DNA from: Escherichia coli
Lineage (GTDB): Bacteria > Pseudomonadota > Gammaproteobacteria > Enterobacterales > Enterobacteriaceae
Direction: 5' to 3' (one strand)
Assembly: GCF_003334335.1 (NCBI RefSeq)
Contig: NZ_QOWQ01000003.1
DNA: 64,000 bases
Part shown: positions 41,341 to 41,458 of the stretch, piece after piece
How the letters are laid out: the number at the start of each line of letters is the position of its first letter
Position numbering within the stretch: the first letter of the stretch is position 1
Notes under the pieces: generated by a model
Databases searched by the model: none
What the model saw: only the letters and a program-made list of their open reading frames with translations
What the model was told of the DNA's origin: nothing
Translations under genes and position numbers: made by a program

Positions 41341-41366
41341 CAAAAAAAGCCTCCACTGGGAGGCTT
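41341..41366 (-). terminator. pheST attenuator terminator
   Basis: On the minus strand AGCCTCC-CAGT-GGAGGCT followed by TTTTTTT, about 50 nt downstream of the pheM stop and upstream of pheS. Confidence 0.7.
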
Positions 41367-41413
41367 TCAGGCGCTGTTTTCCGTTTCTCTTCTCACGCGC
41401 TAGCCTCCTGGAT

Positions 41414-41458
41414 TCAGGTGCTAAAGTAAAAAAAGAAGCGGAAAATAGCAGCATTCAT
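41414..41458 (-). CDS. pheM: pheST operon leader peptide ([14 protein letters not shown])
   Basis: Hand translation of the minus strand gives ATG AAT GCT GCT ATT TTC CGC TTC TTT TTT TAC TTT AGC ACC TGA: 14 codons, 5 of them Phe. Too short for the ORF track. Confidence 0.85.

Follow-up and report, generated by a model that had tools for sequence, protein, structure and literature searches.

T-box regulation and leader-peptide attenuation are both established mechanisms, and pheM is unusual among the attenuators of Escherichia coli in that an aminoacyl-tRNA synthetase is placed under its control. The pheM/pheST attenuator is itself already known: it was described in the 1980s and is annotated in both RefSeq and Rfam. 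Two papers that refer back to Trudel et al. 1984 and Mayaux et al. 1985 present pheM as a transcription attenuator acting on the operon for phenylalanyl-tRNA synthetase (PMC5371410, PMC3831192). The first of them, with reference to Trudel et al. 1984, sets out alternative structures of pheM for termination and for read-through (PMC5371410). In the second, a pheM attenuator served as a reporter in vivo, and mutagenesis of the regulatory region is credited to Mayaux et al. 1985 (PMC3831192). For the response of read-through to tRNA charging in vivo, this literature is the sole source (Trudel et al. 1984 and Mayaux et al. 1985, cited through PMC5371410 and PMC3831192).

We examined a window of 64,000 nucleotides of an E. 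coli contig (NZ_QOWQ01000003.1) in which a sequence-only reading had placed the classic Phe-sensing attenuator of pheST. With a probability of about 97%, the element is the pheM leader and ribosome-mediated transcription attenuator of the E. coli pheST-ihfA operon, set by the supply of charged tRNA-Phe; its identity, its alternative helices and their conservation are directly supported, and no result speaks against this reading. Every element named by that reading is present, the sequence is 100% identical to annotated pheM, and it lies directly upstream of pheS-pheT-ihfA; the check yields exact coordinates for all attenuator parts in the window (Table 1). Many complete E. coli chromosomes contain the 521 bases from 41100 to 41620 at 100% identity, and the RefSeq features under this match are rplT, a 'Phe leader region', pheM ('pheST operon leader peptide PheM') and pheS. 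The gene order in an identical E. coli record is thrS-infC-rpmI-rplT-pheM-pheS-pheT-ihfA-btuC. In MG1655 (NC_000913.3) pheM is b1715, located at 1799226-1799270 and named 'pheST-ihfA operon leader peptide'. The window is collinear with this genome (genome coordinate = window coordinate + 1,757,812); over the 701 nt matched a single base differs, at 41842 within rplT. Every one of the 5426 complete E. coli genomes carries the 125-nt leader, and in 5301 of them the identity is 99% or more.

Two of the leader matches fall on records classed as plasmids, and for one genome such a record carries the sole match, chromosomes giving 5425 places for the 5426 genomes; the probable explanation is either a replicon assigned to the wrong class or a piece of chromosome carried on a large plasmid. 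The record of the K-12-derived strain ER1709 marks thrS as a frameshifted pseudogene, most likely through a sequencing or assembly error, the gene being essential.

Table 1. Features of the pheM attenuator and its surroundings, in window coordinates
Feature	Coordinates	Strand	Description and basis
rplT (ribosomal protein L20), upstream gene	41581..41937	-	ORF; annotated as rplT in identical E. coli record
rplT terminator hairpin	41547..41570	-	AGAGGGAG-CTAGT-CTCCCTCT, then TTT; sequence read, presumed function
Putative pheM promoter	41497..41525	-	-35 TTGACT 41525-41520, 17-nt spacer, -10 TTCAAT 41502-41497
Shine-Dalgarno-like AAGG	41470..41473	-	11 nt upstream of pheM ATG; (A/C)AAGGTAAC kept in most homologues; putative
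Rfam Phe_leader (RF01859) match	41340..41464	-	75.0 bits, E = 5.3e-12, model positions 1-125 of 125
pheM leader ORF with stop codon	41414..41458	-	Sequence read and translation; annotated as pheM in identical genomes
1:2 helix (anti-antiterminator)	41371..41452	-	-37.3 kcal/mol; MFE folds, energies, RNAalifold consensus
2:3 antiterminator	41359..41408	-	-17.0 kcal/mol; nascent-RNA MFE with Phe codons masked
3:4 intrinsic terminator	41342..41368	-	10-bp G+C-rich stem GAAAGCCTCC/GGAGGCTTTT at 41368-41345, 4-nt loop CAGU (CAGT in the DNA), -14.9 kcal/mol
147-nt dispersed MITE-like repeat	41176..41322	-	pheST 5' UTR, not part of attenuator; polymorphic among E. coli strains
pheS (PheRS alpha subunit), first regulated gene	40147..41130	-	ORF, 327 aa
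pheT (PheRS beta subunit)	37745..40132	-	ORF and annotated record
ihfA, last gene of pheST-ihfA operon	37441..37740	-	ORF and annotated record

By its translation and by the RefSeq annotation of identical DNA, the peptide encoded between rplT and pheS, on their strand, is that of E. coli pheM. The minus-strand sequence CAATGAATGCTGCTATTTTCCGCTTCTTTTTTTACTTTAGCACCTGA holds the ATG (41458-41456), 14 sense codons and the TGA (41416-41414). Five of the codons specify Phe—numbers 6 (UUC), 8 (UUC), 9 (UUU), 10 (UUU) and 12 (UUU)—and occupy positions 41443-41441, 41437-41429 and 41425-41423, and translation revealed no in-frame stop inside the Phe run. With five Phe among codons 6-12, upstream of the PheRS genes, the frame is a short leader rich in regulatory codons, its translation being predicted. 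The degenerate pattern FRFFFYF occurs once in the window, against 0.00 expected from 100 shuffles. The listing of ORFs had a floor of 20 aa, below which these 14 codons fall, and the reading made from the letters recovered a regulatory ORF of a length that ORF callers skip. Its other particulars hold as well: the ORF carries the five Phe codons ascribed to it, the GC hairpin and U-run announced about 50 nt downstream are real, with 45 nt between stop codon and stem, and the proposed range of 41341-41458 fits the ORF and terminator accurately.

Upstream of the ORF, the alignment across genera displays a conserved AAGGTAAC 11-12 nt before the pheM ATG, which suggests AAGG as a putative ribosome-binding site, weak and set at an 11-nt spacing. 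E. coli has one extra A at 41459-41461, between the GGTAACGCAAGC block and the ATG (GCAAGCAATG, against GCAAGCATG in other genera), which makes an already long distance from Shine-Dalgarno to start longer still. In another frame of the same strand, a 44-codon ATG ORF (41320-41454) shares sequence with pheM and with the entire attenuator; it extends across the terminator, shows no sign of being a gene and is most likely a mechanical ORF.

The sequence-only reading had proposed that folding of the region should reveal alternative antiterminator and terminator structures, and mutually exclusive hairpins were indeed found. The intrinsic terminator, closed by a run of seven T (41348-41342), stands after the leader ORF and ahead of the first structural gene. 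Upstream of it, segment 1 (41452-41425, from codon 3 to codon 12, with the Phe codons inside) pairs with segment 2 (41396-41371) in a long interrupted helix that encloses a small hairpin (41424-41400). In the antiterminator, GGAGGCUAG-GCGU (41408-41395) pairs with GCGCCU...AGCCUCC (41374-41359). It competes with the 5' arm of the terminator for the seven nucleotides 41365-41359, which makes the two mutually exclusive, and 13 nucleotides are common to the antiterminator and the 1:2 state. The whole leader (156 nt) has a minimum free energy of -62.1 kcal/mol, against -38.7 +/- 3.7 kcal/mol for dinucleotide shuffles (z = -6.3), and the corresponding structure consists of the 1:2 helix and the 3:4 terminator.

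When the full-length leader is folded at equilibrium, the terminator stays in the MFE structure under every ribosome mask. The choice between antiterminator and terminator must therefore be kinetic and co-transcriptional, and we infer that the switch can work only in this manner. Equilibrium folding with a mask cannot show such a switch, and it was replaced by folding of the nascent RNA, modelled crudely by truncation before the 3' arm of the terminator, with a ribosome mask of 30 nt. In this setting a mask on any of the Phe codons from 6 to 12 shifts the MFE structure from the 1:2 helix holding these codons to the 2:3 antiterminator. A ribosome placed at the UGA stop codon, or no ribosome at all, leaves the 1:2 helix in the MFE structure.

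Two further helices appeared in the folds of the E. coli sequence and were not carried into the model. The outer helix of the MFE structure joins 41466-41458 with 41343-41335, a 3' side that extends beyond the T-run and is unaligned between genera; pairing of 41466 in the full-length fold would thus be possible only in read-through transcripts. The 5' hairpin CUUUUG/CAAAAG (41490-41471) was dropped as it is not conserved in other genera.

The geometry of the leader fits the classical attenuation model. The UGA lies only 8 nt upstream of GGAGGCU, so that a terminating ribosome is expected to cover segment 2 and a ribosome stalled on the Phe codons is not. Drawing on these folds and, for the kinetic coupling and the dependence on tRNA-Phe charging, also on the literature, we propose the following sequence of events. 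RNA polymerase would initiate at a promoter situated shortly after the rplT terminator, with a ribosome then starting on the 14-codon ORF. When Phe-tRNA-Phe is plentiful, the ribosome would reach the UGA with its footprint over the GGAGG of segment 2 (41408 onward), and after its release the long 1:2 helix would form again. With segment 2 covered or held in the 1:2 helix, segment 3 would be free to pair with segment 4, and polymerase would stop at the T-run. When charged tRNA-Phe is scarce, the ribosome would stall on one of the five Phe codons (41443-41423) and keep segment 1 single-stranded. The stretch 41408-41395, left exposed by the stalled ribosome, would then pair with 41374-41359 once the latter is transcribed; because the terminator 5' arm would lose 7 of its 10 nucleotides to this antiterminator, polymerase would read through into pheS, pheT and ihfA. 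Thus the element is an attenuator, as first proposed, and the term 'Phe-sensing' needs amendment: the signal sensed would be charged tRNA-Phe, by way of ribosome speed, and not phenylalanine itself.

Homologues of the leader were sought by scanning species-representative genomes for the FRFFFYF pattern. Of at least 120 stretches found, about 100 are chance matches in A+T-rich genomes, lying inside longer ORFs or lacking a start and stop. At least 20 among the matches listed are true pheM homologues in other genera that keep the start codon, a length of 13-16 codons, the stop and the frame. These come from Citrobacter (3), Enterobacter (2), Superficieibacter, Pantoea (2), Mixta, Rahnella (2), Yersinia, Pectobacterium (2), Acerihabitans, Budvicia, Providencia, Photorhabdus, Xenorhabdus and one unclassified Proteobacteria MAG, an arbitrary and small taxonomic sample drawn from the matches listed. 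At these 20 loci every flanking gene seen follows the order rplT-pheM-pheS in the same orientation; both neighbours are present at 17 loci, pheS only at 2 and rplT only at 1. Conservation of the Phe core follows by construction from a search that required FRFFFYF and is no independent evidence. The N-terminal residues vary, as in MNAAI, MLIVA, MFFAF, MHVVT, MSTVI and MHAAL among the same matches.

An alignment of 21 leader sequences has a mean column identity of 80%, and the non-coding part is very highly conserved. Such conservation is expected of bases that must serve a reading frame and two overlapping structures at once. In the terminated conformation (1:2 helix with terminator) 92.3% of cells are paired, against 43-61% when the 3' partners are slid, and in the antiterminator conformation 95.1%, against 37-57%, a control which favours the tested structures as they were derived from the E. 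coli sequence. Taken separately, the terminator helix is paired in 96% of cells across homologues among the matches listed and the 1:2 helix in 93%, with 4 pairs of the latter changed on both sides among 20 distinct sequences. Those 4 are out of 43 pairs in the whole terminated conformation, and 48 of 500 shuffles reach the same number. One of the double changes is a synonymous one, in which the third position of a Phe codon (UUU/UUC) is matched by A/G in segment 2. The antiterminator has a single pair changed on both sides, which does not exceed shuffles. RNAalifold independently predicts the same 1:2 helix and terminator, with a covariation term of -0.21. The covariation is sparse because the leader is conserved to about 80%, and its signal is weak in absolute terms. 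Judged by the alignment, both alternative conformations are kept across the 20 Enterobacterales homologues among the matches listed.

The very high conservation of the non-coding leader could also be read as the mark of an added function of its own, with the leader RNA acting in trans as a small RNA, the PheM peptide as a micropeptide, or the leader as an RNase III-controlled decay element that sets the half-life of pheST mRNA separately from attenuation. RNase III cleaves the pheM leader in vitro, within the attenuator, and transcripts at pheM decayed faster in the wild type than in an rnc mutant; an RNase III-dependent RNA-seq site is reported at NC_000913.3:1799278, as 'pheM-rplT intergenic' (PMC5371410). 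This site corresponds to 41466 in the window, 8 nt upstream of the pheM ATG and at the 5' edge of the leader. The conservation can, however, be fully accounted for by the overlapping alternative helices; free variation in the N-terminal half of PheM speaks against a role for the peptide, and no target in trans is known. We regard an added function as distinctly improbable.

Between the attenuator and pheS, the pheST 5' UTR carries a dispersed repeat of 147 nt with terminal inverted repeats of about 16 nt (GCCTGTCTCATCAGG / CCTGATGGGATAGGC), which folds as a hairpin of -55.7 kcal/mol. It is cleanly absent, as an indel, from the pheST site of E. coli 042, and is missing from that site in about 644 of the 5426 complete genomes (about 12%). 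An E. coli genome has a median of 5 copies and up to 8, other copies being found in the rlmL/ycbX and qseE/qseG intergenic regions at about 83% identity. In this the repeat behaves like a MITE, and we describe it as MITE-like. Its copies bear no RefSeq annotation and match no Rfam family, and no published name for the 147-nt repeat was found in the literature searched; it may be one of the named K-12 intergenic repeats, perhaps 'RSA'. In K-12-type strains the read-through mRNA of pheST carries this hairpin element before the ribosome-binding site of pheS, whose Shine-Dalgarno sequence GAGGA stands 7 nt upstream of the ATG at 41130. It is conceivable, though rather unlikely, that the insertion alters how stable pheST mRNA is, how RNases process it or how it is translated; if it did, basal expression of PheRS or the dynamic range of the attenuator would vary from one natural strain to another.

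The region between rplT and pheM bears on a plainer interpretation, in which the hairpin and T-run are an ordinary intrinsic terminator, serving for example as a back-up against read-through from rplT, and the 14-codon ORF is a chance frame that senses nothing. Terminator-like hairpins do arise in a consensus scan (3 in 1 kb, against 1.1 expected), and the Shine-Dalgarno sequence of the small ORF is weak. Yet rplT has a terminator of its own, kept across genera in the upstream alignment, which we infer to separate the upstream operon from the pheM promoter. The small ORF keeps its frame, start and stop in the 20 homologues from other genera among the matches listed, the synonymous change of a Phe codon is matched in segment 2, the Rfam leader match is full-length (E = 5e-12), and attenuation at pheM is documented (PMC5371410, PMC3831192). 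We give this interpretation almost no credence, and return to pheM as a ribosome-mediated attenuator.

As for its promoter, TTGAC(A/T) and TTTTCAATA recur at the same spacing in Escherichia, Citrobacter, Enterobacter, Superficieibacter, Pantoea and Mixta, and this conservation across genera points to TTGAC(A/T)-17 nt-TTCAAT as the putative pheM promoter. A consensus promoter scan between rplT and pheM reported nothing; it missed the candidate because the -10 hexamer is without A at position 2. In one strain, CDE2901-yvys, an IS200C element of about 710 bp with tnpA is inserted at 41544/41543, immediately past the T-run that follows the rplT hairpin; the putative -35 hexamer lies 18 nt downstream of the insertion, and both promoter and leader are intact.

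The leader belongs to the Rfam family Phe_leader, its score exceeding the curated gathering score of 55 bits. The pheM leaders of Providencia, Xenorhabdus, Budvicia and Yersinia score similarly on this model (74-76 bits), against 132 bits for E. coli pheL, the paralogous leader of pheA on which RF01859 is centred. In Pantoea sp. 1.19 the pheM leader, although clearly homologous, falls below the gathering score, and annotation based on Rfam will therefore miss some pheM attenuators. No T-box matched between 40000 and 45000 in the Rfam search, at E up to 1, and no RNA family besides Phe_leader matched the region. The pheL-like consensus of the family (132 against 75 bits) and the alignment of the two leaders over their whole length might suggest that the element is pheL, the leader of the phenylalanine biosynthesis gene pheA, and not a synthetase leader, a reading refuted by the gene context: the gene downstream here is pheS and not pheA, pheL lies elsewhere, between raiA and pheA, and encodes a different peptide, and RefSeq calls the present element pheM.

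The closest counterpart is the pheM/pheST-ihfA attenuator of E. coli K-12 (b1715), which has the same sequence, position and architecture, with no difference in the attenuator, and the comparison with the published pheST attenuator that the sequence-only reading had called for agrees with the literature on pheM. The attenuator of pheA is the next of kin. The pheL and pheM leaders share the Rfam family, a Phe-rich leader peptide and a 1:2 helix over the Phe codons; their alignment spans both from end to end, with 74 identical columns and a common architecture, and the pheL terminator (AAGGCCTCCC...GGGGGGCCTTTTTT) is very similar to that of pheM. Unlike pheM, pheL controls a biosynthetic gene rather than a tRNA synthetase, and its peptide has 15 residues, 7 of them Phe. 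Attenuators of the trpL, hisL and thrL type likewise have a translated leader and 1:2, 2:3 and 3:4 helices, with the position of the ribosome deciding on the terminator (PMC5371410), but they use different regulatory codons and control biosynthetic operons. The T-box leaders of pheST in Firmicutes follow the same logic, in which uncharged tRNA-Phe raises the synthetase through a choice between terminator and antiterminator; a T-box, in contrast to pheM, binds the uncharged tRNA directly and needs neither a leader peptide nor a ribosome.
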